Of a stretch of DNA of 64,000 nucleotides, positions 7,226 through 23,854 are shown piece by piece. The notes under the pieces were generated by a model. The model did no database searches. It was not told the origin of the DNA and worked only from the letters and a program-made list of their open reading frames with translations. Each line of letters opens with the position of its first letter. The stretch's first letter is position 1. This stretch comes from Escherichia coli (GTDB taxonomy: Bacteria > Pseudomonadota > Gammaproteobacteria > Enterobacterales > Enterobacteriaceae), in assembly GCF_003790525.1 (NCBI RefSeq), contig NZ_CP033635.1; one strand, written 5' to 3'. The position numbers and the translations under genes are program-made.

Positions 7226-7714
7226 TTAGCGGACAACCGCGTTGTCAATTTTCTCTTCCGCCTTCCAGACACGGTACTTCACATCCACATTGTCTGGCGT
7301 ATACACCACGATCGGCAGCTTGCTGTTGTAACGCAGCATTCCAGCATCGCCCAGATACGCGGTGACAAATTTCTTCTCTTTCTTGCCATCCGGGCAAGCC
7401 ATCATCGTGGAAACCGGCGAGCTAACTTTATCAAAGACATAATAATCATAGCCCCAGCCTTCCAGCGTTTTGCTTTCCAGCTTCCCGCCGAGACGATGCA
7501 AATTGCAGTCGACTTCCAGCGTCTGACCGATTAACAGTTCTACTTTCAGGGTAGATTCATCTTCTTGCGGAGTTAACTGAATCACCTGACGCTTCATGCC
7601 TTTTTCAGCTTGTGGATAAGGTGCGATTTTTTCCAGTGGCTGGACGCTTTCTGCCGCCCAGGCGGAAGTGGTGGCGAAAGCGGCAAACAATACTGCAGGT
7701 AGAATGGTCTTCAT
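7226..7714 (-). CDS. eco: Ecotin, periplasmic serine-protease inhibitor
   Basis: ORF 7226..7735 trimmed to the [20 protein letters not shown] signal-peptide start (162 aa), preceded by a GGAAAG Shine-Dalgarno. Confidence 0.93.
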
Positions 7715-7848
7715 TTTTTTGCTTTCCTTCTTCATTTATAGGTTTTCACCGATGATGTCGCTGAAGGTTAACATATTCATCAGATTTATTAATTTGCTTT
7801 ATGAATAACTTAAAGAACATTCAGATAATTTTACCTGCTCTTTTAGTG

Positions 7849-8013
7849 TTAAATTCTGATGAGAAAACAAACCAGCAGAAATATCTCTGGCGAATTAATC
7901 GCTATATAAATATGTTTATAACCATTTGAAATGTGAGCAAAAGCCCGTTTTTGCCACGCTTCCCGCCACTCTTTTGATCCTGCTACAGGTTTTACCCCGA
8001 TCGGGGTATGCAT
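7849..8013 (-). CDS. yojO: Small protein of unknown function (54 codons), divergent from napF
   Basis: Hand-translated minus-strand ORF MHTPIGVKPVAGSKEWREAWQKRAFAHISNGYKHIYIAINSPEIFLLVCFLIRI-stop. Length and position agree with my recollection of the K-12 small gene yojO next to eco, but this is not verified. Below the 60-aa cutoff of the ORF track. Confidence 0.4.
   Translation of the reverse strand: MHTPIGVKPVAGSKEWREAWQKRAFAHISNGYKHIYIAINSPEIFLLVCFLIRI
7897..7921 (+). promoter_or_regulatory. Candidate ModE operator in the napF control region
   Basis: atCGCTATATAaatatgtTTATAAcc resembles the ModE consensus (CGCTATATA-N-TATATAACG); the napF promoter is known to be molybdate/ModE-responsive. 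Confidence 0.4.
7974..8008 (+). promoter_or_regulatory. napF promoter: candidate FNR half-site (TTGAT) and a perfect NarP/NarL 7-2-7 palindrome TACCCCGATCGGGGTA
   Basis: Perfect 16-bp palindrome at about 7993..8008 matching the NarL/NarP heptamer pair (TACYYMT-2-AKRRGTA), about 115 bp upstream of the napF start; TTGAT about 15 bp further upstream. Confidence 0.6.
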
Positions 8014-8121
8014 CTTTGACACATCCTTTAATATCTTAGCGGCTATAAAAATGGCTTATTAATTATGCGGTTTATTTGGTCGCTCTCAATTTTCAGAGCG
8101 CGTTAATGATGGAAGGTCAAT

Positions 8122-8616
8122 GTGAAGATTGATGCATCCCGTCGGGGCATACTCACTGGTCGCTGGCGCAAAGCCAGTAACGGTATCCGTCCGCCCTGGT
8201 CCGGTGATGAATCTCATTTTCTGACCCATTGCACCCGCTGTGATGTCTGTATTAATGCTTGTGAAAACAACATTCTGCAACGCGGCGCGGGTGGCTATCC
8301 GAGCGTTAATTTCAAAAATAACGAGTGCAGCTTCTGTTACGCCTGCGCGCAGGCTTGCCCCGAATCGCTATTTTCTCCGCGCCACACCAGGGCCTGGGAT
8401 TTGCAGTTCACCATTGGGGACGCGTGCCTGGCGTATCAGTCAGTTGAATGCCGCCGCTGTCAGGATAGCTGTGAGCCAATGGCAATTATCTTTCGCCCGA
8501 CGCTCTCCGGGATCTACCAGCCGCAACTTAATAGCCAACTTTGCAACGGATGTGGAGCATGTGCAGCCAGCTGTCCGGTATCAGCCATAACTGCGGAGTA
8601 TCTCCATGCACACTAA
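8122..8616 (+). CDS. napF: Ferredoxin-type protein NapF (4Fe-4S clusters)
   Basis: 164-aa ORF, GTG start; several CxxCxxCxxxCP-type ferredoxin motifs. Confidence 0.93.
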   Translation: MKIDASRRGILTGRWRKASNGIRPPWSGDESHFLTHCTRCDVCINACENNILQRGAGGYPSVNFKNNECSFCYACAQACPESLFSPRHTRAWDLQFTIGDACLAYQSVECRRCQDSCEPMAIIFRPTLSGIYQPQLNSQLCNGCGACAASCPVSAITAEYLHAH

Positions 8617-8869
8617 CTGGCAAGTTTGCAGCCTGGTCGTGCAGGCCAAAAGCGAACGAATTTCAGACATCAGCACCCAACTGAACGCCTTTACCGGCTG
8701 TGAAGTTGCTGTCAGCGACGCGCCGAGCGGTCAGTTGATTGTGGTGGTGGAAGCAGAAGACAGCGAAACGCTGATCCAAACCATTGAGTCAGTACGCAAC
8801 GTAGAGGGCGTGCTGGCGGTGTCGCTGGTTTATCACCAGCAGGAAGAGCAAGGTGAGGAAACACCATGA
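8606..8869 (+). CDS. napD: NapA signal-peptide chaperone NapD
   Basis: 87-aa ORF overlapping the napF end and the napA start. Confidence 0.93.
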
Positions 8870-11352
8870 AACTCAGTCGTCGTAGCTTTATGAAAGCTAA
8901 CGCCGTTGCGGCCGCTGCGGCGGCTGCCGGTCTCAGCGTGCCGGGCGTTGCCCGCGCCGTTGTTGGTCAGCAGGAAGCCATTAAATGGGATAAAGCGCCG
9001 TGCCGTTTCTGCGGTACGGGTTGCGGCGTTCTGGTCGGAACGCAGCAGGGGCGTGTGGTGGCCTGTCAGGGCGACCCGGACGCACCGGTTAACCGTGGCC
9101 TGAACTGCATTAAGGGCTATTTCCTGCCCAAAATCATGTACGGTAAAGACCGTTTGACGCAGCCGCTGCTGCGTATGAAAAACGGTAAATATGACAAAGA
9201 AGGCGAATTTACCCCAATCACCTGGGATCAGGCCTTCGATGTGATGGAAGAGAAATTTAAGACTGCCCTGAAAGAAAAAGGGCCGGAATCGATCGGTATG
9301 TTCGGTTCTGGTCAGTGGACTATCTGGGAAGGTTATGCCGCGTCCAAGTTGTTCAAAGCGGGCTTCCGTTCGAACAACATCGACCCGAACGCGCGTCACT
9401 GTATGGCGTCGGCAGTAGTTGGCTTTATGCGTACCTTTGGTATGGATGAGCCGATGGGCTGCTACGACGACATCGAGCAGGCTGACGCGTTTGTGCTGTG
9501 GGGCGCAAACATGGCGGAGATGCACCCGATCCTCTGGTCGCGCATCACTAACCGTCGTCTCTCTAACCAGAACGTTACCGTGGCGGTGCTTTCTACCTAC
9601 CAGCATCGTAGCTTCGAGCTGGCGGATAACGGCATCATCTTTACGCCGCAATCTGACCTGGTGATCCTGAACTATATCGCCAACTATATCATTCAAAACA
9701 ATGCGATAAATCAGGACTTCTTCAGCAAACACGTTAACCTGCGCAAAGGGGCGACGGACATCGGCTACGGTTTACGTCCGACCCATCCGCTGGAAAAAGC
9801 AGCGAAGAATCCGGGTTCTGACGCCTCCGAACCGATGAGCTTTGAAGATTACAAAGCCTTCGTTGCTGAATATACGCTGGAAAAAACCGCCGAAATGACC
9901 GGCGTGCCGAAAGACCAGTTAGAACAACTGGCGCAGCTGTATGCCGATCCGAACAAGAAAGTCATCTCCTACTGGACGATGGGCTTCAACCAGCATACCC
10001 GTGGTGTGTGGGCCAACAACCTGGTCTACAACCTGCACCTGCTGACCGGCAAAATTTCCCAGCCGGGTTGCGGTCCGTTCTCCCTGACCGGGCAGCCTTC
10101 CGCGTGTGGTACTGCGCGTGAAGTGGGCACCTTTGCTCACCGTCTGCCTGCGGACATGGTGGTGACTAACGAGAAACATCGTGATATTTGCGAGAAGAAG
10201 TGGAATATCCCGAGTGGCACCATTCCGGCGAAAATCGGTCTGCACGCGGTGGCACAAGACCGTGCGCTGAAAGACGGCAAACTGAATGTTTACTGGACCA
10301 TGTGTACCAATAACATGCAGGCCGGACCGAACATTAATGAAGAGCGTATGCCGGGCTGGCGCGATCCGCGCAACTTTATCATCGTTTCCGATCCGTATCC
10401 GACGGTCAGTGCGCTGGCAGCGGACTTGATCCTGCCGACCGCAATGTGGGTAGAGAAAGAGGGCGCTTACGGTAATGCCGAACGCCGTACTCAGTTCTGG
10501 CGTCAGCAGGTACAGGCACCGGGTGAAGCGAAATCGGATCTCTGGCAGTTAGTTCAGTTCTCCCGCCGCTTCAAAACTGAAGAAGTGTGGCCGGAAGAGT
10601 TGCTGGCGAAGAAACCTGAACTGCGTGGCAAAACGCTGTATGAGGTTCTGTATGCCACTCCGGAAGTGAGCAAATTCCCGCTATCCGAACTGGCGGAAGA
10701 TCAGCTGAACGATGAATCCCGCGAGCTGGGCTTCTATCTGCAAAAAGGGCTGTTCGAAGAGTACGCATGGTTTGGTCGCGGTCACGGTCACGATCTCGCG
10801 CCGTTCGATGACTACCACAAAGCACGCGGTCTGCGCTGGCCGGTGGTGAACGGTAAAGAAACGCAGTGGCGTTACAGCGAAGGTAACGACCCGTACGTGA
10901 AAGCGGGCGAAGGCTACAAGTTCTACGGTAAACCGGATGGCAAAGCGGTGATCTTCGCGCTGCCGTTCGAACCTGCGGCGGAAGCACCGGATGAAGAGTA
11001 CGACCTGTGGCTCTCTACCGGACGCGTCCTGGAGCACTGGCATACCGGCAGTATGACTCGCCGTGTACCGGAACTGCACCGCGCCTTCCCTGAAGCGGTC
11101 CTGTTTATTCACCCGCTGGATGCGAAAGCGCGCGATCTGCGTCGTGGCGACAAAGTGAAAGTGGTTTCTCGCCGTGGCGAAGTGATCTCGATTGTCGAAA
11201 CGCGCGGCCGTAACCGTCCACCGCAGGGCCTGGTGTACATGCCGTTCTTCGACGCCGCACAGCTGGTTAACAAACTGACGCTGGACGCGACCGATCCGCT
11301 CTCGAAAGAGACGGACTTCAAGAAGTGCGCGGTCAAACTGGAGAAGGTGTAA
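8866..11352 (+). CDS. napA: Periplasmic nitrate reductase catalytic subunit NapA (molybdopterin, Tat-exported)
   Basis: 828-aa ORF; twin-arginine signal ([28 protein letters not shown]); N-terminal Cys cluster CRFCGTGC. Confidence 0.96.
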
Positions 11353-11358
11353 GCCATT

Positions 11359-12054
11359 ATGTCCCGGTCAGCGAAACCTCAAAATGGTCGCCGCCGCTTT
11401 CTGCGCGATGTCGTTCGCACAGCAGGCGGGCTGGCTGCCGTGGGTGTGGCGCTGGGGTTACAACAGCAAACCGCACGCGCATCTGGTGTGCGGTTGCGCC
11501 CGCCCGGAGCCATAAACGAGAACGCCTTTGCCAGTGCCTGTGTGCGTTGCGGTCAGTGTGTTCAGGCTTGCCCTTACGACACCTTAAAACTGGCGACGCT
11601 GGCTTCTGGCCTGTCGGCGGGCACGCCATATTTTGTTGCGCGGGATATTCCTTGCGAAATGTGTGAGGACATTCCGTGCGCCAAAGTGTGCCCGAGCGGT
11701 GCGCTGGATCGTGAGATCGAATCGATCGACGACGCGCGGATGGGGCTGGCGGTGCTGGTGGACCAGGAAAACTGTCTCAACTTTCAGGGGCTGCGCTGCG
11801 ATGTTTGTTATCGCGAATGCCCGAAAATTGATGAGGCCATCACCCTGGAGCTGGAGCGCAACACGCGTACCGGTAAGCACGCCCGCTTTCTGCCGACGGT
11901 TCACAGCGACGCCTGTACCGGTTGCGGTAAGTGCGAAAAAGTGTGCGTGCTGGAACAACCGGCAATCAAGGTGTTACCGCTGTCACTAGCGAAAGGGGAG
12001 TTAGGTCACCATTACCGCTTCGGCTGGCTGGAGGGGAACAATGGCAAATCGTAA
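11359..12054 (+). CDS. napG: Ferredoxin-type quinol dehydrogenase subunit NapG (Tat signal)
   Basis: 231-aa ORF; RRRFLRD twin-arginine motif; four Cys-cluster motifs. Confidence 0.94.
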
Positions 12055-12904
12055 ACGTGACGCCGGGCGCGAGGCGCTGGAGAAAAAAGGCTGGTGGCGC
12101 AGTCACCGTTGGTTAGTGTTACGTCGCCTTTGTCAGTTCTTCGTGCTGGGGATGTTTTTGAGCGGTCCGTGGTTTGGTGTGTGGATCTTGCACGGCAACT
12201 ACAGCAGTAGCCTGTTATTCGACACCGTTCCGCTGACCGATCCGCTGATGACGCTGCAAAGCCTTGCCAGCGGTCATCTGCCTGCCACGGTAGCACTGAC
12301 TGGTGCGGTAATTATCACCGTGCTCTACGCCCTGGCAGGAAAGCGATTATTTTGCAGCTGGGTCTGCCCGCTGAACCCGATTACCGACTTAGCGAACTGG
12401 TTACGCAGGCGCTTTGACCTCAATCAGTCTGCGACGATCCCTCGCCACATTCGCTACGTGCTGTTGGTGGTCATTCTGCTGGGATCGGCCTTAACCGGCA
12501 CGCTCATCTGGGAATGGATCAACCCCGTTTCCCTGATGGGGCGCAGCCTGGTAATGGGCTTCGGTAGCGGCGCGCTGCTTATTCTCGCGCTGTTTTTATT
12601 TGATCTACTGGTCGTTGAACACGGCTGGTGCGGTCACATTTGTCCGGTTGGCGCGCTGTATGGCGTACTGGGTAGCAAAGGTGTGATTACCGTTGCGGCC
12701 AGCGATCGGCAGAAATGTAACCGCTGTATGGATTGTTTTCATGTTTGCCCGGAACCGCATGTGCTACGTGCCCCGGTGCTGGATGAACAAAGCCCGGTGC
12801 AGGTCACCAGCCGCGATTGCATGACGTGCGGTCGCTGCGTGGATGTCTGTTCTGAGGATGTATTTACAATAACTACACGATGGAGTTCGGGAGCGAAATC
12901 ATGA
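12041..12904 (+). CDS. napH: Membrane ferredoxin-type quinol dehydrogenase subunit NapH
   Basis: 287-aa ORF with TM segments and C-terminal Cys clusters; overlaps napG by 14 nt. Confidence 0.94.
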
Positions 12905-13350
12905 AAAGCCATGACCTGAAGAAAGCGCTGTGTCAATGGACGGCGATGCTGGCCCTGGTGGTGAGCGGCGCGGTTTGGGCGGCTAATGGCGTCGATTTTA
13001 GCCAGTCGCCGGAAGTATCCGGGACGCAGGAAGGGGCCATTCGGATGCCAAAAGAGCAGGAACGGATGCCGCTGAACTATGTGAATCAGCCGCCAATGAT
13101 CCCGCATAGCGTTGAAGGTTATCAGGTAACGACCAATACCAACCGCTGCTTGCAGTGCCACGGTGTCGAAAGCTATCGCACCACTGGCGCGCCGCGCATC
13201 AGTCCTACTCACTTTATGGACAGCGACGGCAAAGTGGGCGCGGAAGTGGCTCCGCGTCGTTATTTCTGTCTGCAATGTCACGTACCGCAGGCCGATACCG
13301 CGCCAATCGTGGGGAATACCTTTACCCCATCAAAAGGTTACGGGAAATAA
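12901..13350 (+). CDS. napB: Periplasmic di-haem cytochrome c NapB
   Basis: ORF 12880..13350 trimmed to the MKSHDLKK start (149 aa); signal peptide; two CxxCH motifs (CLQCH twice); ATGA overlap with the napH stop. Confidence 0.93.
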   Translation: MKSHDLKKALCQWTAMLALVVSGAVWAANGVDFSQSPEVSGTQEGAIRMPKEQERMPLNYVNQPPMIPHSVEGYQVTTNTNRCLQCHGVESYRTTGAPRISPTHFMDSDGKVGAEVAPRRYFCLQCHVPQADTAPIVGNTFTPSKGYGK

Positions 13351-13359
13351 GAGGTTATT

Positions 13360-13962
13360 ATGGGAAATTCTGACCGTAAGCCTGGTCTGATTAAGCGCCT
13401 GTGGAAATGGTGGCGTACCCCCAGCCGTTTGGCGCTGGGGACGCTACTGTTGATCGGTTTTGTCGGCGGCATCGTCTTCTGGGGCGGCTTTAACACCGGG
13501 ATGGAAAAAGCCAATACCGAAGAGTTCTGCATTAGCTGCCACGAAATGCGTAACACGGTGTATCAGGAATACATGGATTCCGTGCACTACAACAACCGTA
13601 GCGGCGTTCGTGCGACCTGTCCGGATTGTCACGTTCCGCACGAGTTTGTGCCGAAGATGATACGCAAGCTCAAAGCAAGTAAAGAGCTGTATGGTAAAAT
13701 TTTTGGCGTTATTGACACGCCGCAGAAATTTGAAGCTCATCGCCTGACGATGGCACAGAATGAGTGGCGGCGCATGAAGGACAATAACTCGCAGGAGTGC
13801 CGTAACTGTCACAACTTCGAGTATATGGATACAACCGCCCAGAAATCGGTTGCCGCGAAGATGCATGACCAGGCGGTGAAAGATGGGCAAACCTGTATTG
13901 ATTGCCATAAAGGGATAGCGCACAAGCTGCCCGATATGCGCGAAGTCGAGCCAGGTTTTTAA
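13360..13962 (+). CDS. napC: Membrane-anchored tetra-haem cytochrome c NapC (NapC/NirT family)
   Basis: 200-aa ORF; N-terminal TM anchor; four CxxCH motifs (CISCH, CPDCH, CRNCH, CIDCH). Confidence 0.95.
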   Translation: MGNSDRKPGLIKRLWKWWRTPSRLALGTLLLIGFVGGIVFWGGFNTGMEKANTEEFCISCHEMRNTVYQEYMDSVHYNNRSGVRATCPDCHVPHEFVPKMIRKLKASKELYGKIFGVIDTPQKFEAHRLTMAQNEWRRMKDNNSQECRNCHNFEYMDTTAQKSVAAKMHDQAVKDGQTCIDCHKGIAHKLPDMREVEPGF

Positions 13963-13974
13963 CAGGGTTATTGC

Positions 13975-14598
13975 GTGGGTATGCTTGAAGCCAGAGAGTT
14001 ACTTTGCGAGCGGGATGAACGAACCTTATTTAGTGGCTTGTCATTTACGCTGAACGCAGGAGAGTGGGTACAAATCACCGGTAGCAACGGCGCGGGGAAG
14101 ACAACGCTTCTCCGTTTGCTGACGGGGTTGTCTCGCCCTGATGCGGGTGACGTTCTCTGGCAAGGGCAGCCCTTGCATCAGGTACGCGACAGCTACCATC
14201 AAAACCTGTTATGGATAGGCCATCAGCCGGGGATCAAAACCCGGCTGACGGCGTTAGAAAATCTGCACTTTTATCATCGCGATGGCGATACCGCACAATG
14301 TCTGGAAGCCCTGGCGCAGGCTGGGCTTGCCGGATTCGAAGATATTCCGGTAAATCAACTTTCTGCCGGGCAACAACGCCGCGTCGCTTTAGCGCGTCTG
14401 TGGCTGACCCGTGCCACGTTATGGATCCTCGACGAGCCTTTTACCGCGATTGACGTTAACGGCGTCGATCGTCTGACCCAGCGTATGGCGCAGCATACGG
14501 AGCAGGGGGGGACTGTGATTCTGACTACCCACCAGCCGCTCAACGTTGCTGAAAGTAAAATTCGCCGCATTTCACTGACGCAAACGGGGGCCGCATGA
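13975..14598 (+). CDS. ccmA: Haem exporter ATP-binding protein CcmA
   Basis: 207-aa ORF, GTG start; Walker [10 protein letters not shown]. Confidence 0.94.
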
Positions 14599-15257
14599 TG
14601 TTCTGGCGCATTTTCCGTCTTGAGCTGCGCGTGGCGTTTCGCCACAGCGCCGAAATCGCCAACCCGCTGTGGTTCTTCCTGATTGTCATTACCCTTTTTC
14701 CGCTCAGTATCGGTCCGGAGCCGCAACTGCTGGCGCGTATTGCACCGGGCATTATCTGGGTTGCCGCGCTGCTTTCATCCTTGCTGGCACTCGAGCGACT
14801 GTTCCGTGACGATTTGCAGGACGGCAGTCTTGAACAATTGATGTTGTTGCCGTTACCCTTGCCCGCCGTTGTGCTGGCGAAGGTGATGGCGCACTGGATG
14901 GTAACCGGTCTGCCGTTACTCATCCTTTCGCCCCTGGTAGCAATGCTACTGGGAATGGATGTTTATGGCTGGCAAGTGATGGCGCTGACGCTGCTGCTGG
15001 GAACGCCTACGCTTGGCTTTCTCGGTGCACCGGGCGTGGCGCTGACAGTGGGACTTAAGCGCGGTGGTGTGCTGCTCAGCATACTGGTGTTACCGCTGAC
15101 TATCCCATTACTCATCTTTGCCACCGCCGCGATGGACGCGGCTTCTATGCATTTGCCCGTTGATGGGTATCTGGCAATTTTAGGCGCGTTGCTGGCAGGC
15201 ACCGCGACATTAAGTCCTTTTGCGACGGCGGCAGCGTTACGAATCAGCATTCAATAA
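14595..15257 (+). CDS. ccmB: Haem exporter membrane protein CcmB
   Basis: 220-aa polytopic ORF; ATGA overlap with ccmA. Confidence 0.94.
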
Positions 15258-15298
15258 CGCTGGATTACTGATTTTTGTTCGAGTCTGGTATCGAAACT

Positions 15299-16036
15299 AT
15301 GTGGAAAACACTGCATCAACTGGCGATCCCACCACGGCTGTATCAAATCTGTGGCTGGTTTATACCGTGGCTGGCAATTGCCAGTGTGGTCGTGCTTACC
15401 GTCGGCTGGATCTGGGGATTCGGCTTTGCTCCGGCTGATTATCAGCAGGGAAATAGCTACCGCATTATCTACCTGCATGTGCCTGCGGCGATCTGGTCGA
15501 TGGGCATTTATGCATCAATGGCGGTGGCGGCGTTTATTGGCCTTGTCTGGCAGATGAAAATGGCCAACCTGGCGGTGGCGGCGATGGCCCCCATTGGTGC
15601 CGTGTTTACCTTTATTGCCCTGGTTACCGGCTCTGCATGGGGAAAACCGATGTGGGGCACCTGGTGGGTATGGGATGCACGTCTGACTTCTGAACTGGTG
15701 CTGCTGTTTTTGTATGTGGGTGTGATTGCCCTGTGGCACGCCTTCGACGACCGCCGTCTGGCGGGCCGTGCGGCAGGTATCCTGGTGCTGATTGGCGTGG
15801 TGAATCTGCCGATTATTCATTACTCCGTGGAGTGGTGGAACACCCTGCACCAGGGATCAACGCGGATGCAGCAAAGTATCGATCCGGCGATGCGTTCGCC
15901 GCTGCGCTGGTCGATTTTTGGCTTCCTGCTCCTGTCTGCCACGCTGACGCTGATGCGGATGCGTAATTTGATTTTGCTGATGGAAAAACGCCGTCCGTGG
16001 GTGAGTGAACTGATACTGAAAAGAGGCCGTAAATGA
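15299..16036 (+). CDS. ccmC: Haem exporter/lyase protein CcmC (WWD domain)
   Basis: ORF 15275..16036 trimmed to the MWKTLHQ start (245 aa); WGTWWVWDARL WWD motif. Confidence 0.93.
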   Translation: MWKTLHQLAIPPRLYQICGWFIPWLAIASVVVLTVGWIWGFGFAPADYQQGNSYRIIYLHVPAAIWSMGIYASMAVAAFIGLVWQMKMANLAVAAMAPIGAVFTFIALVTGSAWGKPMWGTWWVWDARLTSELVLLFLYVGVIALWHAFDDRRLAGRAAGILVLIGVVNLPIIHYSVEWWNTLHQGSTRMQQSIDPAMRSPLRWSIFGFLLLSATLTLMRMRNLILLMEKRRPWVSELILKRGRK

Positions 16037-16242
16037 CCCCTGCATTTGCTTCCTGGAATGAATTTTTCGCAATGGGCGGTTACGCCTTTTTTGTCTGGCT
16101 GGCGGTGGTGATGACCGTCATTCCGCTGGTGGTTTTGGTCGTGCACTCGGTGATGCAGCATCGCGCAATTCTGCGTGGCGTGGCGCAACAGCGGGCGCGT
16201 GAGGCGCGTTTACGTGCTGCGCAACAGCAGGAGGCTGCATGA
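16033..16242 (+). CDS. ccmD: Haem exporter small membrane protein CcmD
   Basis: 69-aa ORF; overlaps the ccmC stop and the ccmE start. Confidence 0.92.
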
Positions 16243-16718
16243 ATATTCGCCGTAAAAACCGCTTGTGGATTGCCTGTGCCGTGTTGGCGGGGCTGGCGCT
16301 GACTATCGGTCTGGTGCTATATGCGCTGCGCTCGAATATCGATCTCTTTTATACGCCGGGGGAAATTCTCTACGGCAAGCGTGAAACTCAGCAAATGCCG
16401 GAAGTCGGTCAGCGTCTGCGCGTTGGCGGGATGGTGATGCCGGGTAGTGTGCAGCGCGATCCCAATTCGCTAAAAGTAACTTTCACCATTTACGACGCTG
16501 AAGGTTCAGTAGATGTCTCTTACGAAGGCATTTTGCCGGATCTGTTCCGTGAAGGGCAGGGCGTTGTGGTGCAGGGCGAACTGGAAGAAGGCAATCATAT
16601 CCTCGCGAAAGAAGTGCTGGCGAAACACGATGAAAACTACACGCCGCCAGAAGTTGAGAAAGCGATGGAAGCCAATCACCGTCGCCCGGCGAGTGTTTAT
16701 AAGGACCCAGCATCATGA
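16239..16718 (+). CDS. ccmE: Periplasmic haem chaperone CcmE
   Basis: 159-aa ORF with N-terminal membrane anchor. Confidence 0.94.
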
Positions 16719-18658
16719 TGCCGGAAATTGGTAACGGGCTGCTGTGTCTGGCGCTAGGAATTGCGCTGCTGCTGTCCGTGTATCCGCTATGGGGCGTAGC
16801 GCGCGGAGATGCGCGCATGATGGCATCTTCCCGCTTGTTTGCCTGGCTGCTGTTTATGTCTGTGGCTGGCGCATTTCTGGTACTGGTCAATGCCTTCGTG
16901 GTCAACGACTTCACCGTCACCTATGTTGCCAGCAACTCCAATACCCAGCTTCCGGTGTGGTATCGCGTGGCGGCCACCTGGGGCGCGCATGAAGGCTCGC
17001 TCCTGCTGTGGGTGCTGCTGATGAGCGGCTGGACCTTTGCGGTAGCGATTTTTAGTCAGCGTATTCCGCTGGATATTGTGGCCCGCGTACTGGCGATAAT
17101 GGGGATGGTCAGCGTCGGCTTTTTGCTGTTCATTCTCTTTACCTCTAACCCGTTCTCACGCACGTTGCCGAACTTCCCGATTGAAGGTCGCGATCTTAAC
17201 CCGCTGTTACAGGATCCGGGGCTGATCTTCCATCCGCCTCTGCTTTATATGGGGTACGTCGGCTTCTCGGTGGCGTTTGCTTTTGCCATTGCTTCTTTGT
17301 TGAGCGGGCGTCTGGACAGCACTTATGCGCGTTTTACTCGTCCGTGGACGCTGGCGGCGTGGATCTTCTTGACGCTCGGCATTGTGCTCGGTTCCGCATG
17401 GGCCTATTACGAACTCGGCTGGGGCGGCTGGTGGTTCTGGGATCCGGTAGAAAACGCCTCGTTTATGCCGTGGCTGGTGGGGACTGCGCTGATGCACTCA
17501 CTGGCGGTCACTGAACAACGCGCCAGCTTCAAAGCGTGGACATTACTGCTGGCAATCAGTGCCTTCTCGTTGTGTCTGCTGGGGACTTTCCTGGTGCGTT
17601 CCGGCGTGCTGGTATCGGTACACGCGTTTGCCTCTGATCCGGCACGCGGTATGTTTATCCTCGCCTTTATGGTACTGGTGATTGGTGGTTCGCTGCTGCT
17701 GTTTGCCGCGCGTGGACACAAAGTTCGCTCACGCGTAAACAATGCGCTGTGGTCGCGGGAATCTCTGCTGTTAGCGAACAACGTTTTGCTGGTCGCCGCG
17801 ATGCTGGTGGTGTTGCTGGGGACGCTGCTGCCGCTGGTGCACAAGCAACTGGGACTGGGCAGTATTTCGATTGGCGAACCGTTCTTCAACACCATGTTTA
17901 CCTGGCTGATGGTGCCGTTTGCGCTGCTGCTTGGTGTCGGTCCTCTGGTGCGCTGGGGGCGCGATCGCCCACGTAAAATCCGCAATTTGTTGATTATCGC
18001 CTTCATCTCTACGCTGGTGCTGTCGCTGCTGTTGCCGTGGCTGTTCGAAAGCAAAGTGGTGGCGATGACGGTGCTCGGCCTGGCAATGGCCTGCTGGATT
18101 GCGGTGCTGGCAATTGCGGAAGCTGCGCTGCGTATTTCACGCGGCACGAAAACCACCTTCAGTTATTGGGGAATGGTGGCGGCTCACCTGGGGCTGGCAG
18201 TGACAATTGTTGGTATTGCCTTTAGCCAGAACTATAGCGTTGAGCGTGATGTGCGCATGAAGTCCGGCGATAGTGTCGATATCCATGAATATCGCTTCAC
18301 CTTCCGTGATGTCAAAGAGGTGACTGGCCCGAACTGGCGTGGCGGTGTGGCGACTATCGGCGTAACGCGCGATGGCAAGCCGGAAACGGTGCTGTATGCG
18401 GAAAAACGTTATTACAACACTGCCGGGTCGATGATGACCGAAGCGGCGATTGACGGCGGCATCACGCGTGACCTGTACGCCGCGCTCGGTGAAGAGCTGG
18501 AAAACGGCGCGTGGGCCGTGCGTCTTTACTACAAACCGTTTGTTCGCTGGATTTGGGCGGGCGGGCTGATGATGGCGTTGGGCGGACTGCTGTGTCTGTT
18601 TGATCCTCGCTATCGTAAGCGCGTGAGTCCGCAAAAAACTGCGCCGGAGGCTGTATGA
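16715..18658 (+). CDS. ccmF: Cytochrome c-type biogenesis haem lyase subunit CcmF
   Basis: 647-aa polytopic ORF with [15 protein letters not shown] motif. Confidence 0.95.
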
Positions 18659-19212
18659 AGCGCAAAGTATTGTTAATTCCGTTGATTATCTTCCTGGCGA
18701 TTGCCGCGGCGCTGCTGTGGCAGCTGGCGCGTAATGCCGAAGGGGATGATCCGACCAATCTGGAATCGGCGCTCATTGGCAAGCCAGTGCCGAAGTTTCG
18801 CCTCGAATCACTGGACAATCCGGGGCAGTTTTATCAGGCGGATGTGCTGACTCAGGGCAAACCTGTGCTGCTTAACGTCTGGGCGACCTGGTGTCCGACC
18901 TGCCGTGCGGAACATCAATATCTGAATCAGCTTTCTGCGCAGGGCATTCGCGTGGTCGGCATGAACTATAAAGACGATCGCCAGAAGGCAATCAGCTGGC
19001 TGAAAGAGCTGGGCAATCCTTACGCACTAAGCCTGTTTGATGGCGACGGCATGTTAGGGCTGGATCTCGGTGTCTATGGCGCGCCAGAAACGTTCCTCAT
19101 CGACGGCAACGGCATCATTCGCTATCGCCATGCGGGCGATCTCAATCCTCGCGTCTGGGAAGAAGAGATCAAGCCGCTGTGGGAGAAATACAGTAAGGAG
19201 GCCGCACAATGA
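18655..19212 (+). CDS. ccmG: Thiol:disulfide interchange protein CcmG/DsbE
   Basis: 185-aa ORF; thioredoxin-fold WCPTC active site. Confidence 0.95.
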   Translation: MKRKVLLIPLIIFLAIAAALLWQLARNAEGDDPTNLESALIGKPVPKFRLESLDNPGQFYQADVLTQGKPVLLNVWATWCPTCRAEHQYLNQLSAQGIRVVGMNYKDDRQKAISWLKELGNPYALSLFDGDGMLGLDLGVYGAPETFLIDGNGIIRYRHAGDLNPRVWEEEIKPLWEKYSKEAAQ

Positions 19213-20261
19213 GGTTTTTATTGGGCGTGCTGATGCTGATGATCTCCGGCTCAGCGCTGGCGACCATCGACGTGTTGCAGTTTAAGGATGAAGCGCAGGA
19301 GCAGCAGTTCCGCCAACTCACTGAAGAACTACGCTGCCCGAAATGCCAGAACAACAGCATTGCCGATTCCAACTCGATGATTGCCACCGACCTGCGCCAG
19401 AAAGTGTATGAACTGATGCAGGAAGGTAAAAGTAAGAAAGAGATTGTCGATTATATGGTGGCGCGTTACGGCAACTTCGTCACTTACGATCCGCCGTTAA
19501 CGCCGCTGACCGTGCTGCTGTGGGTGCTTCCGGTAGTGGCTATTGGCATTGGCGGTTGGGTCATTTACGCCCGTTCGCGGCGTCGGGTACGCGTGGTGCC
19601 GGACGCGTTTCCTGAACAAAGCGTGCCGGAAGGTAAGCGTGCCGGATATATTGTTTATCTGCCGGGTATTGTGGTGGCGTTAATTGTGGCTGGCGTCAGC
19701 TACTACCAGACGGGCAATTATCAGCAGGTGAAAATCTGGCAGCAGGCCACGGCACAGGCTCCGGCGTTACTGGACAGGGCGCTGGATCCGAAAGCCGATC
19801 CGCTCAACGAAGAAGAGATGTCGCGCCTGGCGCTGGGGATGCGTACTCAACTGCAAAAAAATCCGGGAGATATAGAAGGCTGGATTATGTTGGGCCGCGT
19901 TGGCATGGCGCTGGGTAACGCCAGTATTGCCACCGATGCATACGCTACTGCATATCGCCTCGATCCGAAGAACAGTGATGCGGCGCTCGGATACGCTGAA
20001 GCGTTGACACGTTCATCTGATCCCAACGACAACCGCCTGGGTGGTGAACTGCTACGCCAGTTGGTGAGAACTGACCACAGCAATATCCGTGTGTTAAGCA
20101 TGTATGCGTTTAATGCCTTTGAGCAGCAGCGATTTGGCGAAGCCGTTGCCGCGTGGGAGATGATGTTGAAACTCTTACCTGCCAATGATACTCGCCGTGC
20201 GGTGATTGAACGTAGTATCGCGCAGGCGATGCAACATTTGTCGCCGCAGGAGAGTAAATAA
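19209..20261 (+). CDS. ccmH: Cytochrome c-type biogenesis protein CcmH (fused CcmH/CcmI type)
   Basis: 350-aa ORF; LRCPKCQ motif and TPR-like C-terminal region. Confidence 0.94.
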   Translation: MRFLLGVLMLMISGSALATIDVLQFKDEAQEQQFRQLTEELRCPKCQNNSIADSNSMIATDLRQKVYELMQEGKSKKEIVDYMVARYGNFVTYDPPLTPLTVLLWVLPVVAIGIGGWVIYARSRRRVRVVPDAFPEQSVPEGKRAGYIVYLPGIVVALIVAGVSYYQTGNYQQVKIWQQATAQAPALLDRALDPKADPLNEEEMSRLALGMRTQLQKNPGDIEGWIMLGRVGMALGNASIATDAYATAYRLDPKNSDAALGYAEALTRSSDPNDNRLGGELLRQLVRTDHSNIRVLSMYAFNAFEQQRFGEAVAAWEMMLKLLPANDTRRAVIERSIAQAMQHLSPQESK

Positions 20262-20263
20262 AA

Positions 20264-20299
20264 AGAGGCCCGATGGTGATGCCATCGGGCTATTTTTAT
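20264..20299. terminator. Bidirectional Rho-independent terminator shared by ccmH (+) and narP (-)
   Basis: Hairpin gcccgatgg-loop-ccatcgggc flanked by an A-run upstream and a T-run downstream, between the convergent ccmH and narP ends. Confidence 0.55.
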
Positions 20300-20943
20300 T
20301 GTGCCCCGCGTTGTTGCAGGAACAGAATGGTGGCCGCCACGCGTGAGCGGACATTGAGTTTACGCAGCAGATTGCGAATGTGTACTTTTACTGTCTGCTC
20401 GGAAATATTCAACACCGAGGCAATCTGTTTATTTGACAGCCCCTGTGCCAGCTCGTGCAGAACATCCAGCTCGCGCTCCGTCAGCACGCTGAAGGGATCT
20501 TCTTCTGCGCCAAACATTTCACGTTCACGTAAGTACTGATTGACGCGTTCGCTAAAGACTTTGCTGCCTTTCGCTCCGGCACGAATCGCTTCCAGCAACA
20601 CTTCCGGGTCGCTGTCTTTCAACAGATAACCGTCTGCGCCTGCGTCTATCAGCGCAAAGACATCGCTGGAGGCATCTGATACGGTCAGGATAATAATTTG
20701 CGCGGTAACGCCATCCCTGCGCAAGGCATTGAGGGTATCCAGGCCACTCATACCTTTCATATTGAGATCCAGTAAGATCACGTCGATATCCAGCCTATTC
20801 GCCAGATCGATCGCGCTCGCGCCGTCGCCCGCTTCGGCGACCACTTCAAAGCCAGGATCAAGCTCCAGTAACTGACGAACACCGCGTCGCATAAGTGGAT
20901 GATCATCCACAATCATCACCTGAAAAGGCGTTGCTTCAGGCAT
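20296..20943 (-). CDS. narP: Nitrate/nitrite response regulator NarP (receiver + LuxR-type HTH)
   Basis: ORF 20296..20973 trimmed to MPEATPFQVMIVDDHPLMRRG (215 aa); receiver domain and C-terminal LuxR/FixJ HTH. Confidence 0.94.
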   Translation of the reverse strand: MPEATPFQVMIVDDHPLMRRGVRQLLELDPGFEVVAEAGDGASAIDLANRLDIDVILLDLNMKGMSGLDTLNALRRDGVTAQIIILTVSDASSDVFALIDAGADGYLLKDSDPEVLLEAIRAGAKGSKVFSERVNQYLREREMFGAEEDPFSVLTERELDVLHELAQGLSNKQIASVLNISEQTVKVHIRNLLRKLNVRSRVAATILFLQQRGAQ

Positions 20944-21262
20944 AGTAGTCTCCTGAGGTTTTATTAGAATCATTATGTTTGAGCGTAGCGTTGGTAACGC
21001 TACCAGGCGCGTGAATGTTACCCCATTTTATGTATGGACATGTAGTGAAAACTACAACCTTGTCGTTCGCTTTGGCATCATTTTCATTATAAAGACGGAA
21101 TTTTGCATCAGCTTCTCATCAAGAAAAACAACTAAAAAATCAATCACAATACTTGTGCATTTCTTTAAACAGTTTTTAAAAACTGACTCCGGGTATGGAG
21201 CTATGGGTATTTTCTTTACCCAATGCTTTTAACAGCAATTAATTTCATAGGATGAAAGCTCA

Positions 21263-23854
21263 ATGCATCAATCTGGTTCTGTTTCTCTTTGTCGTTCCGC
21301 AATATCTGTTCTGGTGGCTACAGCGTTATATTCACCCATAGCATTGGCATCAACAGTTGAGTATGGTGAGACAGTTGATGGTGTTGTCCTGGAAAAAGAT
21401 ATCCAGCTGGTTTATGGGACCGCCAATAATACGAAAATCAATCCTGGCGGAGAACAGCATATTAAAGAATTTGGTATAAGTAGTAATACTGAAATTAACG
21501 GCGGGTATCAGTACATTGAAATGAATGGCACCGCAGAATACTCAGTATTAAATGATGGTTATCAAATTGTTCAAATGGGTGGCGCGGCAAACCAGACTAC
21601 CCTCAATAATGGTGTGCTACAGGTTTATGGCGCGGCGAATGAACCTACGATTAAAGGCGGGCGCTTAATCGTTGAAAAAGATGGGGGGACCGTCTTTGCC
21701 GCTATCGAAAAGGGAGGACTACTGGAGGTTAAAGAGGGGGGATTTGCGCTTGCGGTAGATCAGAAAGCAGGCGGTGCGATTAAAACAACCACGCGGGCCA
21801 TGGAGGTATTCGGAACAAACCGTCTCGGTCAGTTCGATATCAAGAATGGTATTGCTAATAATATGCTGTTGGAAAACGGCGGAAGTTTGCGAGTTGAAGA
21901 AAATGACTTCGCTTATAATACCACTGTGGATAATGGCGGCTTACTGGAGGTTATGGATGGCGGGACTGCAACTGGCGTTGATAAAAAAGCAGGCGGAAAA
22001 TTAATTGTCTCAACGAATGCGCTGGAAGTGAGTGGTACAAACAGTAAAGGCCAATTTAGTATAAAAGATGGTGTGTCAAAAAATTATGAACTGGATGATG
22101 GTTCCGGGCTCATTGTTATGGAGGACACGCAGGCCATTGATACTATCCTTGATGAGCATGCCACTATGCAATCGCTGGGAAAGGATACTGGTACGAGAGT
22201 GCAGGCAAATGCGGTATATGATCTCGGTCGATCAGATCAGAATGGAAGTATCACGTATTCCTCTAAAGCCATCTCTGAAAATATGGTTATCAACAATGGC
22301 CGCGCTAATGTCTGGGCTGGCACAATGGTTAACGTTTCAGTCAGAGGGAATGATGGCATTCTTGAGGTCATGAAGCCGCAAATAAATTATGCACCCGCTA
22401 TGTTGGTGGGTAGTGTCGTGGTTTCTGAGGGCGCTTCTTTAAGAACGCATGGTGCCGTGGATACCAGCAAAGCGGATGTTTCGCTCGATGGTAGCTCATG
22501 GACCATCATTGCCGATATCACTACGACGAACCAAAACACCCTCCTCAACTTAGCCAACCTTGCGATGTCTGACGCAAATGTGATTATGATGGATGAGCCA
22601 GTGACTCGTTCATCAGTGACGGCAAGTGCGGAAAATTTCATTACGTTGACCACCAATACCCTGTCGGGAAACGGCAATTTTTATATGCGTACCGATATGG
22701 CTAATCATCAGAGCGATCAGCTCAACGTCACCGGTCAGGCAACAGGTGATTTCAAAATATTCGTTACGGACACCGGTGCCAGCCCGGCAGCAGGAGATAG
22801 CCTTACACTGGTAACGACGGGCGGCGGTGATGCTGCATTTACGTTGGGCAATGCCGGAGGCGTTGTTGATATCGGTACGTATGAATATACCTTGCTGGAT
22901 AATGGCAACCATAGCTGGAGTCTGGCAGAGAATCGCGCGCAAATTACCCCTTCAACCACTGATGTGCTGAATATGGCGGCAGCACAACCGCTGGTATTTG
23001 ATGCAGAACTGGACACCGTGCGTGAGCGTCTTGGTAGCGTAAAAGGCGTTAATTACGATACGGCGATGTGGAGTTCGGCAATTAACACCCGCAACAACGT
23101 GACCACTGATGCGGGAGCTGGCTTTGAGCAAACATTGACGGGGCTGACGCTTGGTATCGATAGCCGTTTCTCCCGTGAAGAAAGCAGTACAATTCGCGGC
23201 TTGTTCTTTGGTTACTCTCATTCTGATATTGGTTTTGATCGCGGCGGCAAAGGCAATATCGATAGCTATACCCTGGGGGCTTATGCCGGTTGGGAGCATC
23301 AGAACGGTGCCTATGTTGATGGGGTGGTGAAAGTTGACCGTTTTGCCAACACCATCCATGGCAAGATGAGTAATGGGGCAACAGCGTTTGGCGATTACAA
23401 TAGTAACGGCGCGGGTGCTCATGTCGAGAGCGGGTTCCGTTGGGTTGACGGATTGTGGAGTGTTAGACCTTATCTGGCCTTTACCGGCTTTACCACAGAT
23501 GGTCAGGACTACACGTTATCAAACGGCATGCGCGCGGATGTGGGAAATACCCGCATATTACGGGCTGAAGCGGGAACGGCGGTAAGCTATCACATGGACC
23601 TGCAAAACGGTACGACGCTGGAACCCTGGCTGAAAGCCGCCGTACGTCAGGAATACGCCGATTCTAACCAGGTGAAAGTTAATGACGATGGCAAATTTAA
23701 TAATGATGTGGCTGGAACCCGTGGCGTTTATCAGGCTGGGATAAGGTCATCGTTTACCCCGACGTTAAGCGGTCATTTGTCAGTCAGTTATGGCAATGGC
23801 GCAGGGGTAGAATCGCCGTGGAATACTCAGGCGGGTGTGGTCTGGACGTTCTGA
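21263..23854 (+). CDS. yejO: Autotransporter (type Va) adhesin-like outer-membrane protein YejO
   Basis: 863-aa ORF; N-terminal signal-like region, repetitive Gly/Asn-rich passenger with about 60-aa internal repeats, C-terminal beta-barrel translocator ending ...AGVVWTF. Confidence 0.85.
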   Translation: MHQSGSVSLCRSAISVLVATALYSPIALASTVEYGETVDGVVLEKDIQLVYGTANNTKINPGGEQHIKEFGISSNTEINGGYQYIEMNGTAEYSVLNDGYQIVQMGGAANQTTLNNGVLQVYGAANEPTIKGGRLIVEKDGGTVFAAIEKGGLLEVKEGGFALAVDQKAGGAIKTTTRAMEVFGTNRLGQFDIKNGIANNMLLENGGSLRVEENDFAYNTTVDNGGLLEVMDGGTATGVDKKAGGKLIVSTNALEVSGTNSKGQFSIKDGVSKNYELDDGSGLIVMEDTQAIDTILDEHATMQSLGKDTGTRVQANAVYDLGRSDQNGSITYSSKAISENMVINNGRANVWAGTMVNVSVRGNDGILEVMKPQINYAPAMLVGSVVVSEGASLRTHGAVDTSKADVSLDGSSWTIIADITTTNQNTLLNLANLAMSDANVIMMDEPVTRSSVTASAENFITLTTNTLSGNGNFYMRTDMANHQSDQLNVTGQATGDFKIFVTDTGASPAAGDSLTLVTTGGGDAAFTLGNAGGVVDIGTYEYTLLDNGNHSWSLAENRAQITPSTTDVLNMAAAQPLVFDAELDTVRERLGSVKGVNYDTAMWSSAINTRNNVTTDAGAGFEQTLTGLTLGIDSRFSREESSTIRGLFFGYSHSDIGFDRGGKGNIDSYTLGAYAGWEHQNGAYVDGVVKVDRFANTIHGKMSNGATAFGDYNSNGAGAHVESGFRWVDGLWSVRPYLAFTGFTTDGQDYTLSNGMRADVGNTRILRAEAGTAVSYHMDLQNGTTLEPWLKAAVRQEYADSNQVKVNDDGKFNNDVAGTRGVYQAGIRSSFTPTLSGHLSVSYGNGAGVESPWNTQAGVVWTF

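Follow-up and report, generated by a model that had tools for sequence, protein, structure and literature searches.

A natural allele of the Escherichia coli napFDAGHBC-ccmABCDEFGH operon, with overlapping genes in five blocks and a conserved segment at the napD/napA junction

The periplasmic nitrate reductase genes and the cytochrome c maturation genes of Escherichia coli are treated as one anaerobically induced operon, napFDAGHBC-ccmABCDEFGH (PMC2634741, PMC3893208, PMC10937671), and periplasmic nitrate-reducing activity is known for the K-12 orthologues. Its regulation involves FNR, NarP, NarL, and ModE as well as repression by IscR (PMC8139620, PMC9262595, PMC3688515). Specifically, a peak in chromatin immunoprecipitation sequencing of FNR lies upstream of napF (PMC3688515), phosphorylated NarP activates and phosphorylated NarL competes at the same napF site (PMC9262595), and activation of nap by ModE has been reviewed (PMC8139620). 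Translational coupling along the operon is assumed in the literature found. The DNA analyzed here, referred to as the window, is a stretch of 64,000 nt from E. coli (assembly GCF_003790525.1, contig NZ_CP033635.1), in which the operon occupies positions 8122-20261 on the plus strand. An earlier note on the window described a 15-gene nap-ccm operon, translationally coupled along about 12 kb from a single upstream control region, and considered it already described. The identity, families, motifs, and order of the genes all agree with the 15-gene assignment, and the operon itself, its regulators, and its tight packing are known E. coli physiology. We consider it very probable, for the reading as a whole, that the locus is E. 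coli napFDAGHBC-ccmABCDEFGH (aeg-46.5) with the gene identities given below, that it would be transcribed as an FNR- and NarP-activated RNA of ~12 kb, and that it would be translated in five blocks. The conserved mRNA segment at the napD/napA junction is the sole part that might repay further work.

The operon was matched in 5,425 of 5,426 complete E. coli genomes by a megablast search with 8122-20261 (one genome gave no match), and at least 80% of the query was present in 5,417 of them. All 12,140 of 12,140 bases are 100% identical to several strains including SMS-3-5, and the identity to most E. coli is 95-99%. In the RefSeq annotation of SMS-3-5, the genes lie on one strand in the order napF-D-A-G-H-B-C, ccmA-B-C-D-E-F, dsbE (ccmG), and ccmH, with a 54-aa hypothetical open reading frame (ORF) and eco on the upstream side and the convergent narP on the downstream side. 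The remaining window also matches the SMS-3-5 record, with 3 mismatches in 20204-64000. The operon query had a median of 2 matching places per E. coli genome, the second of which is presumably the paralogous nrfEFG, and 5 places were on plasmids.

All 15 ORFs are intact, having one stop codon each and a length divisible by three. The curated NCBIfam cut-offs are passed by 14 of the 15 products, while CcmH passes the Pfam families PF03918 and PF23914 instead. The genes are as follows.
8122-8616, plus strand: napF, ferredoxin-type protein; GTG start; TIGR00402, 246 bits; three CX2CX2CX3C motifs.
8606-8869, plus strand: napD, chaperone for the twin-arginine translocation (Tat) signal peptide of NapA; NF007840 and PF03927; overlaps napF by 11 nt.
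8866-11352, plus strand: napA, catalytic subunit with molybdenum bis-molybdopterin guanine dinucleotide; TIGR01706, 1655 bits (cut-off 930); ATGA overlap with napD.
11359-12054, plus strand: napG, Fe-S protein; NF007012, 416 bits; Tat-like RRRF; Fe-S motifs.
12041-12904, plus strand: napH, Fe-S subunit of the membrane quinol dehydrogenase; NF007013, 470 bits; two C-terminal 4Fe-4S motifs; overlaps napG by 14 nt.
12901-13350, plus strand: napB, diheme cytochrome c; NF008609, 329 bits; two CXXCH; signal peptide; ATGA overlap with napH.
13360-13962, plus strand: napC, tetraheme quinol dehydrogenase of the NapC/NirT type; NF007906, 463 bits; four CXXCH.
13975-14598, plus strand: ccmA, ATP-binding cassette (ABC) ATPase; GTG start; NF010061, 331 bits; Walker A, Walker B (LWILDE), and signature motifs.
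14595-15257, plus strand: ccmB, permease; TIGR01190, 317 bits; ATGA overlap with ccmA.
15299-16036, plus strand: ccmC, heme-handling WWD protein; TIGR01191, 282 bits; WGTWWVWD motif.
16033-16242, plus strand: ccmD, small protein; TIGR03141 and PF04995.
16239-16718, plus strand: ccmE, heme chaperone; NF009635, 321 bits; heme-binding His motif HDENY at residue 130.
16715-18658, plus strand: ccmF, heme lyase; TIGR00353, 1016 bits; WGGWWFWD motif.
18655-19212, plus strand: ccmG/dsbE, thioredoxin-like protein; NF011941, 422 bits; CPTC motif.
19209-20261, plus strand: ccmH, fused CcmH and CcmI-like tetratricopeptide repeat (TPR) protein; PF03918 and PF23914; LRCPKC motif.

NapA carries the twin-arginine motif SRRSFMK at residues 4-10 and an N-terminal 4Fe-4S cysteine cluster, CRFCGTGC, at residue 46. 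CcmH is of the fused CcmH-CcmI type, with a CcmH domain (PF03918) and a CcmH/CycH TPR domain (PF23914). The components of an E. coli-type napFDAGHBC cluster are thus all present (NapA, the heme motifs of NapB and NapC, the NapD, NapF, NapG, and NapH families, and the order F-D-A-G-H-B-C), as are those of System I, namely the CcmAB module, the WWD motifs of CcmC and CcmF, the His of CcmE, CcmD, and the thiol-redox motifs of CcmG and CcmH together with the TPR domain. The nap products would constitute a periplasmic nitrate reductase with NapAB, with NapC and NapGH for quinol oxidation, and with NapD and NapF as maturation factors in the cytoplasm, and the ccm products would serve System I cytochrome c maturation, delivering heme c to NapB, NapC, and other cytochromes.

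The distances at the nap junctions (in nt, overlaps being negative) are -11 (F/D), -4 (D/A), +6 (A/G), -14 (G/H), -4 (H/B), and +9 (B/C), followed by +12 at napC/ccmA. Those of ccm are -4 (A/B), +41 (B/C), and -4 at C/D, D/E, E/F, F/G, and G/H. Overlaps are found at 10 of the 14 junctions, eight of them of the ATGA type, and 12 of the 14 are an overlap or a gap of 10 nt or less, in line with the earlier statement that this holds for almost every junction. Each of the ten overlaps named in that note is real, including the 14-nt one at napG/napH, and the operon is the largest in the window, followed by the tight clusters yejABEF (4 genes) and fruBKA (3 genes). One sizeable gap is present.
15258-15298, plus strand: ccmB-ccmC spacer of 41 nt, the sole sizeable gap in the operon by junction measurement.
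Overlaps are more frequent in the operon than among the other same-strand neighbor pairs of the window (10/14 vs 4/29; Fisher p = 0.0003). Compared with the closely spaced and likely operonic pairs (<50 nt) elsewhere in the window (4/11), the difference gives p = 0.12, and the operon is therefore a strong case of a common operon feature and not an anomaly.

Shine-Dalgarno duplexes of -4 kcal/mol or stronger were calculated for 13 of the 15 starts, and of -6 kcal/mol or stronger for 11, in comparison with 26% and 8%, respectively, of random positions in the operon. The two weakest, those of ccmA (-3.3 kcal/mol) and ccmC (-3.0 kcal/mol), are located at the two widest gaps, napC/ccmA and ccmB/ccmC. 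The upstream stop codon overlaps or abuts the next start codon at 10 of the 14 junctions, and this geometry is conserved. Because the chain of overlaps is interrupted at +6, +9, +12, and +41, coupling as judged from the junctions can only occur within five blocks: napF-D-A, napG-H-B, napC, ccmA-B, and ccmC-D-E-F-G-H. The proposal of coupling along ~12 kb is overstated, as any coupling would be confined to the blocks between the four junctions where the chain is broken. A ribosome ending an upstream cistron within a block would sit on or beside the next start codon, a position that would favor re-initiation and the opening of local mRNA structure, and translation within a block could use both re-initiation and direct initiation from the Shine-Dalgarno sequence of each cistron. 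The blocks roughly track functional groupings of the products: NapD and NapF serve NapA in the cytoplasm, NapGH forms a quinol dehydrogenase, CcmAB makes up the ABC module, and heme is handled and ligated by CcmCDE and CcmFGH.

Synonymous change was scored at codons with a conserved amino acid in E. albertii, Citrobacter, Leclercia, and Enterobacter, each with a single representative. It averaged 0.36 over the operon, and two stretches, 8768-8950 and 12734-12940, were far below it (family-wise permutation p < 0.0005 each). No synonymous suppression was found at any of the ATGA junctions of ccm. The first stretch, which covers the 3′ end of napD and the 5′ end of napA, drops to 0.013 over 20 codons and makes the napD/napA junction the most constrained stretch of the operon.
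8806-8905, plus strand: ultra-conserved nucleotide stretch over the napD stop and the napA start; synonymous change 0.01-0.04 vs 0.36.
12734-12940, plus strand: second stretch of suppressed synonymous change, at the 3′ end of napH and the 5′ end of napB; 0.09 over 60 codons vs 0.36.

The sequence of 8806-8905 is nearly identical in 14 taxa, out to Hafnia and Edwardsiella, in which NapH is only 60-63% identical. The codons just downstream, in the alanine-rich part of the napA signal peptide, vary freely at third positions, and the conserved stretch takes in the unstructured tail of NapD, with the last six residues, which fall beyond the NapD domain of Pfam. The fold of the RNA is more stable than those of its shuffles (z = -2.97), and RNAalifold predicted three hairpins (8788-8817, 8824-8840, and 8849-8868). 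In the third, the loop holds the Shine-Dalgarno sequence of napA, and two of the AUG bases are paired. Under the three-hairpin model, pairing is kept in 97.7% of the alignment cells, and both partners are changed in 3 pairs, each time in Providencia. None of 500 shuffles and no slid control reaches the observed covariation score; most pairs never vary, so that the covariation is suggestive and not conclusive. Scans with Rfam revealed no Moco (molybdenum cofactor) riboswitch or other known element at napD/napA: no family reached the gathering threshold, and a permissive scan of 8600-9100 gave only a chance viral match (E = 6.3). Antisense coding was also considered as a cause of the constraint. 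A 299-aa antisense ORF (8833-9732) was rejected, as it contains stops in most relatives, and a short antisense ORF opposite the napA ATG is an unlikely cause, varying from 21 to 81 codons and being absent in Providencia and the Pasteurellaceae representative.

We tentatively suggest that ~8806-8905, together with the hairpin starting at 8788, may be a conserved structured mRNA element for translational control or coupling beyond its coding function, a proposal to which we give somewhat less than an even chance. Such an element could tie NapA synthesis to the ribosomes finishing napD, so that the chaperone would be made close to the Tat signal peptide as it emerges; another possibility is a response to a different input such as a small RNA, a ribonuclease, or cofactor status. 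If true, it would provide a concrete and testable mechanism that coordinates the synthesis of a chaperone and its substrate, and together with the other side observations could matter to the field of Tat proofreading and Nap assembly.

The constraint at napH/napB is limited to Escherichia, Salmonella, Citrobacter, Leclercia, and Enterobacter and is relaxed in more distant Enterobacterales. The fold of this stretch was not significant (z = -1.09). A long-range helix hiding the napB Shine-Dalgarno sequence and AUG (12736-12755 with 12885-12907) is present in this minimum-energy fold and is not supported; distant taxa break four of its pairs and keep two by wobble. A 180-aa antisense ORF (12739-13281) was discarded as a cause on account of internal stops even in other Escherichia. 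The constrained 3′ end of napH might harbor a promoter inside the operon or an element controlling napB, particular to the clade with fused nap and ccm, a weaker case than that of napD/napA.

Upstream of napF, the NarP/NarL, FNR-like, and ModE-like sites mentioned in the earlier note are present and conserved across genera. The elements of the control region are as follows.
7898-7922, no strand assigned: ModE-like site ATCGCTATATAAATATGTTTATAAC, center ~7910, by sequence; conserved in Escherichia, Citrobacter, and Enterobacter; 70.5 bp upstream of the FNR center.
7927-7947, no strand assigned: conserved block with a CRP-like half-site TGTGA (7932-7936), by phylogenetic footprint.
7974-7987, no strand assigned: FNR site TTGATcctgCTACA, TTGAT-N4-CTACA, center 7980.5, by sequence; conserved across genera.
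7993-8008, no strand assigned: NarP/NarL 7-2-7 site TACCCCGATCGGGGTA, perfect palindrome, center 8000.5, by sequence; conserved; 20 bp from the FNR center.
8029-8121, plus strand: -10-like TAATAT (8029-8034) and napF 5′ leader to the GTG, by sequence.

An alignment with E. albertii, Citrobacter, Leclercia, and Enterobacter shows conserved islands at the ModE, CRP-like, FNR, and NarP blocks and at the -10, within diverged and indel-rich flanks, and the -10 region ATATCTTAG is invariant in 9 sequences. The arrangement is that of a napF-type promoter, with an FNR site and a 7-2-7 heptamer pair whose centers are 20 bp apart, upstream of a weak -10. Relative to the napF transcription start, the positions reported by Darwin and Stewart are -64.5 for FNR and -44.5 for NarP, and a third published position is -133.5; the 20-bp FNR-NarP and ~70-bp ModE-FNR spacings agree with these positions. 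For napF, Stewart et al. reportedly described in 2009 a Crp site lying further upstream than the Fnr and NarP sites, and the block at 7927-7947, which the earlier note did not mention, is probably this site. Two overlapping promoters in the napF region are said to have been described by Stewart et al. in 2003. Transcription would start at the napF region, where FNR (7980.5) and phospho-NarP (8000.5) would activate together, phospho-NarL would compete for the NarP site, and ModE and probably CRP would act from further upstream. It could then run for ~12.2 kb to a bidirectional terminator shared with narP.
20267-20291, no strand assigned: bidirectional intrinsic terminator between ccmH and the convergent narP (20296-20943, minus strand), the strongest terminator-like site in the scan.
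This terminator has 11 pairs including 7 G-C on the plus strand and 9 pairs on the minus strand, with a T-rich tail for each, and it is the sole strong terminator found by the terminator scan, in which the hairpins inside the operon were only weak. No sigma70-like site was detected on the plus strand in 7500-21300 by a consensus scan, from which weak internal promoters could escape, and this fits an activator-dependent napF promoter.

A yojO-like hypothetical ORF of 54 aa (WP_001296243.1; 7849-8013, minus strand) overlies the ModE, CRP-like, FNR, and NarP sites and had no family match. It is not conserved as a coding sequence outside Escherichia, because the indels in Citrobacter, Leclercia, and Enterobacter are not multiples of three. 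The value of the operon for the window is that of context: its map fixes the genes for 12 kb, places the yojO-like ORF over the regulatory sites, and shows overlap blocks following the functional groupings in outline.

The reading of one napF-driven transcript translated in coupled blocks was weighed against several observations that tell against it, and these are gathered in this and the following two paragraphs with the alternatives that they bear on. A single full-length transcript from napF to ccmH is what we infer from the literature. The alternative that fares best, which we regard as about evenly balanced, is that the locus consists of two or more overlapping transcription units, in which ccm and possibly napBC are also expressed from weak internal promoters and are only partly controlled by napF. 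An Fnr-independent ccmA promoter inside napC was reportedly described by Tanapongpipat et al. in 1998; a text search of the literature for such a promoter, or for any other internal promoter or start of transcription close to ccmA, returned nothing relevant. The products of ccm are needed by cytochromes besides Nap, such as Nrf and Tor. In a CcmA scan with one genome per species, in which the counts here and below are among the matches listed, 70 of 80 ccm clusters had no nap in the retrieved upstream flank (up to 8 kb, shorter on some contigs). nap was directly upstream of ccmA in the other 10, which belong to Escherichia, Citrobacter, Leclercia, and one Enterobacter and all have a CcmA of at least 82% identity. 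Additional contigs fetched via NapH relatives showed the fused arrangement also in Salmonella (up to ccmA, where the contig ends), a metagenome-assembled genome (MAG) labelled Klebsiella, and Trabulsiella, and nap alone in Pluralibacter, Buttiauxella, Atlantibacter, Hafnia, Edwardsiella, and one member of Pasteurellaceae. In Pectobacterium (L087, 5995-19259), a convergent ccm operon with separate ccmH and ccmI lies 0.7 kb downstream of napFDAGHBC as an unfused neighbor. In the sampled genomes, the full nap-ccm fusion is confined to part of Enterobacteriaceae. Further points for several units are that napC/ccmA never overlaps (12-20 nt), that the start codon of ccmA is GTG and its Shine-Dalgarno sequence the second weakest, and that the constraint in the 3′ end of napH (12734-12940) is seen only in the fused clade. 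On the other hand, the consensus scan gave no internal sigma70 promoter on the plus strand in the range given above, the 3′ end of napC (13786-13993) is without significant synonymous constraint (p = 0.43), and ccm is described as expressed with nap only anaerobically (PMC10937671). Since ccm operons are free-standing in other sampled taxa, some independent expression of ccm is plausible. The single upstream control region proposed earlier thus holds in that the napF region is the sole strong control region in the sequence, while one control region for the whole operon is doubtful, given the ccmA promoter reported inside napC and the free-standing ccm elsewhere.

The second alternative accepts the overlaps and denies their function: they would be a by-product of genome compaction and the easy formation of ATGA, and each cistron would be translated from an independent ribosome-binding site. 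We infer functional coupling from the junction geometry, the overlap chain is interrupted at the four gaps listed above, and the recognizable Shine-Dalgarno sequences at 13 of 15 starts could allow most cistrons to initiate independently. The overlap frequency is also not significantly above that of the other tightly spaced pairs in the window (p = 0.12, as above). In addition, an insertion of ~125 nt resembling the enterobacterial repetitive intergenic consensus (ERIC), the same in Salmonella (L084, 10871-10985) and Citrobacter youngae CCUG 30791 (L012), is situated at the position corresponding to 12873/12874 of the window, just upstream of the napB ribosome-binding site. It alters the C-terminus of NapH and abolishes the napH/napB overlap, leaving a 115-nt gap in Salmonella, where the genes are nevertheless kept; C. 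youngae ATCC 29220 (L010) does not have the insertion. napH/napB coupling is accordingly dispensable, because Salmonella and C. youngae CCUG 30791 lack the overlap.

Against the by-product explanation, ~20% DNA divergence has left the lengths of the overlaps exactly as they are, even the odd -11 and -14. In the ten fused loci (~80% DNA identity), the junctions are essentially constant at -11, -4, +5/6, -14, -4, +9, and +12 to +20 up to ccmA, and at -4 (A/B), +40 to +103 (B/C), and then five times -4 in ccm; there are three outliers, two of which are attributable to the ERIC insertion or the start-calling rule. The -4 overlaps persist across Gammaproteobacteria at ccmD/E (41 of 53 gammaproteobacterial loci) and ccmE/F (47 of 64), and ccmB/ccmC overlaps in none of 75 related loci. 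The ccmG/H gaps of ~470 nt that appear in other taxa are artefactual, as ccmH and ccmI are separate genes there. The strong nucleotide-level constraint around napD/napA and napH/napB, and the location of the napA AUG in a conserved predicted hairpin that a terminating napD ribosome would open, likewise tell against this explanation, and we consider a pure by-product unlikely. It is highly improbable that the overlaps are annotation artefacts of mis-assigned start codons: alternative in-frame starts exist (napB ATG 12880, ccmC TTG 15275, and ccmA ATG 13981), but they would alter only napB, with a longer overlap, and two junctions that are already non-overlapping, the profile alignments begin at residues 1-7 of the annotated proteins for most genes, and other genera conserve both the annotated starts and the Shine-Dalgarno sequences that go with them.

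The start of ccmA is ambiguous, with the annotated GTG at 13975 and an ATG two codons on at 13981 (13975-13983); among relatives, Citrobacter has a replacement for the GTG and Leclercia has lost the ATG. The ccmB-ccmC spacer of Citrobacter and Enterobacter contains insertions like repetitive extragenic palindromic (REP) elements and measures 76-103 nt (L006, L009, L010, L012, and L013). A conserved element in this spacer was rejected in view of its length of 40-103 nt and these REP-like insertions. A MAG labelled Providencia (L092) has napFDAGHBC followed by ccmCDEFGH without ccmAB, a partial fusion, and two Providencia loci of the CcmA scan (L034 and L047) show ccmAB alone; the split falls exactly at the never-overlapping ccmB/ccmC junction. 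A second ccmABCDEFGH copy in C. youngae (L016) and C. werkmanii (L017), with CcmA 61% identical, has no linkage to nap and precedes a NapC/TorC-like gene. Of the curated RNA families, Rfam gave in the window only a tRNA (tRNA-Pro; 23960-24033, minus strand) and an L25 ribosomal protein leader (27749-27774, minus strand) upstream of rplY.

The operon may be compared with known systems at several distances. The trp, gal, ribosomal protein, and atp operons are translationally coupled at ATGA or TGATG junctions and, like the nap-ccm operon, show stop and start codons overlapping by 1-4 nt, the Shine-Dalgarno sequence being placed within the preceding cistron; their coupling has been demonstrated by experiment, while that of nap-ccm is assumed. 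The stand-alone ccm operons of Aeromonas, Marinobacterium, Pasteurellaceae, and Pseudomonas share the order ccmABCDE(FGH), the -4 overlaps at ccmD/E and ccmE/F, and the spaced ccmB/ccmC. They differ in having no nap upstream, in the separate CcmH and CcmI of many of them as opposed to the fused CcmH of E. coli, and in some cases in ccmFG being split off or inverted (L060, L064, L074, and L075). The stand-alone nap operons (Hafnia, Edwardsiella, Buttiauxella, Atlantibacter, and Pluralibacter, and napDAGHBC in Pasteurellaceae) have the same order and mostly the same junction types, but no ccm downstream and often narQP-like genes divergent upstream. Neither napF nor the conserved napD/napA junction sequence is present in the Pasteurellaceae copy, whereas the stand-alone nap operons of Enterobacterales have the same ultra-conserved sequence at this junction. 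The closest system is the K-12 operon napFDAGHBC-ccmABCDEFGH (aeg-46.5), which has the same genes, order, junctions, and control sites and differs only by strain-level nucleotide changes, so that the window contains a natural allele of it.

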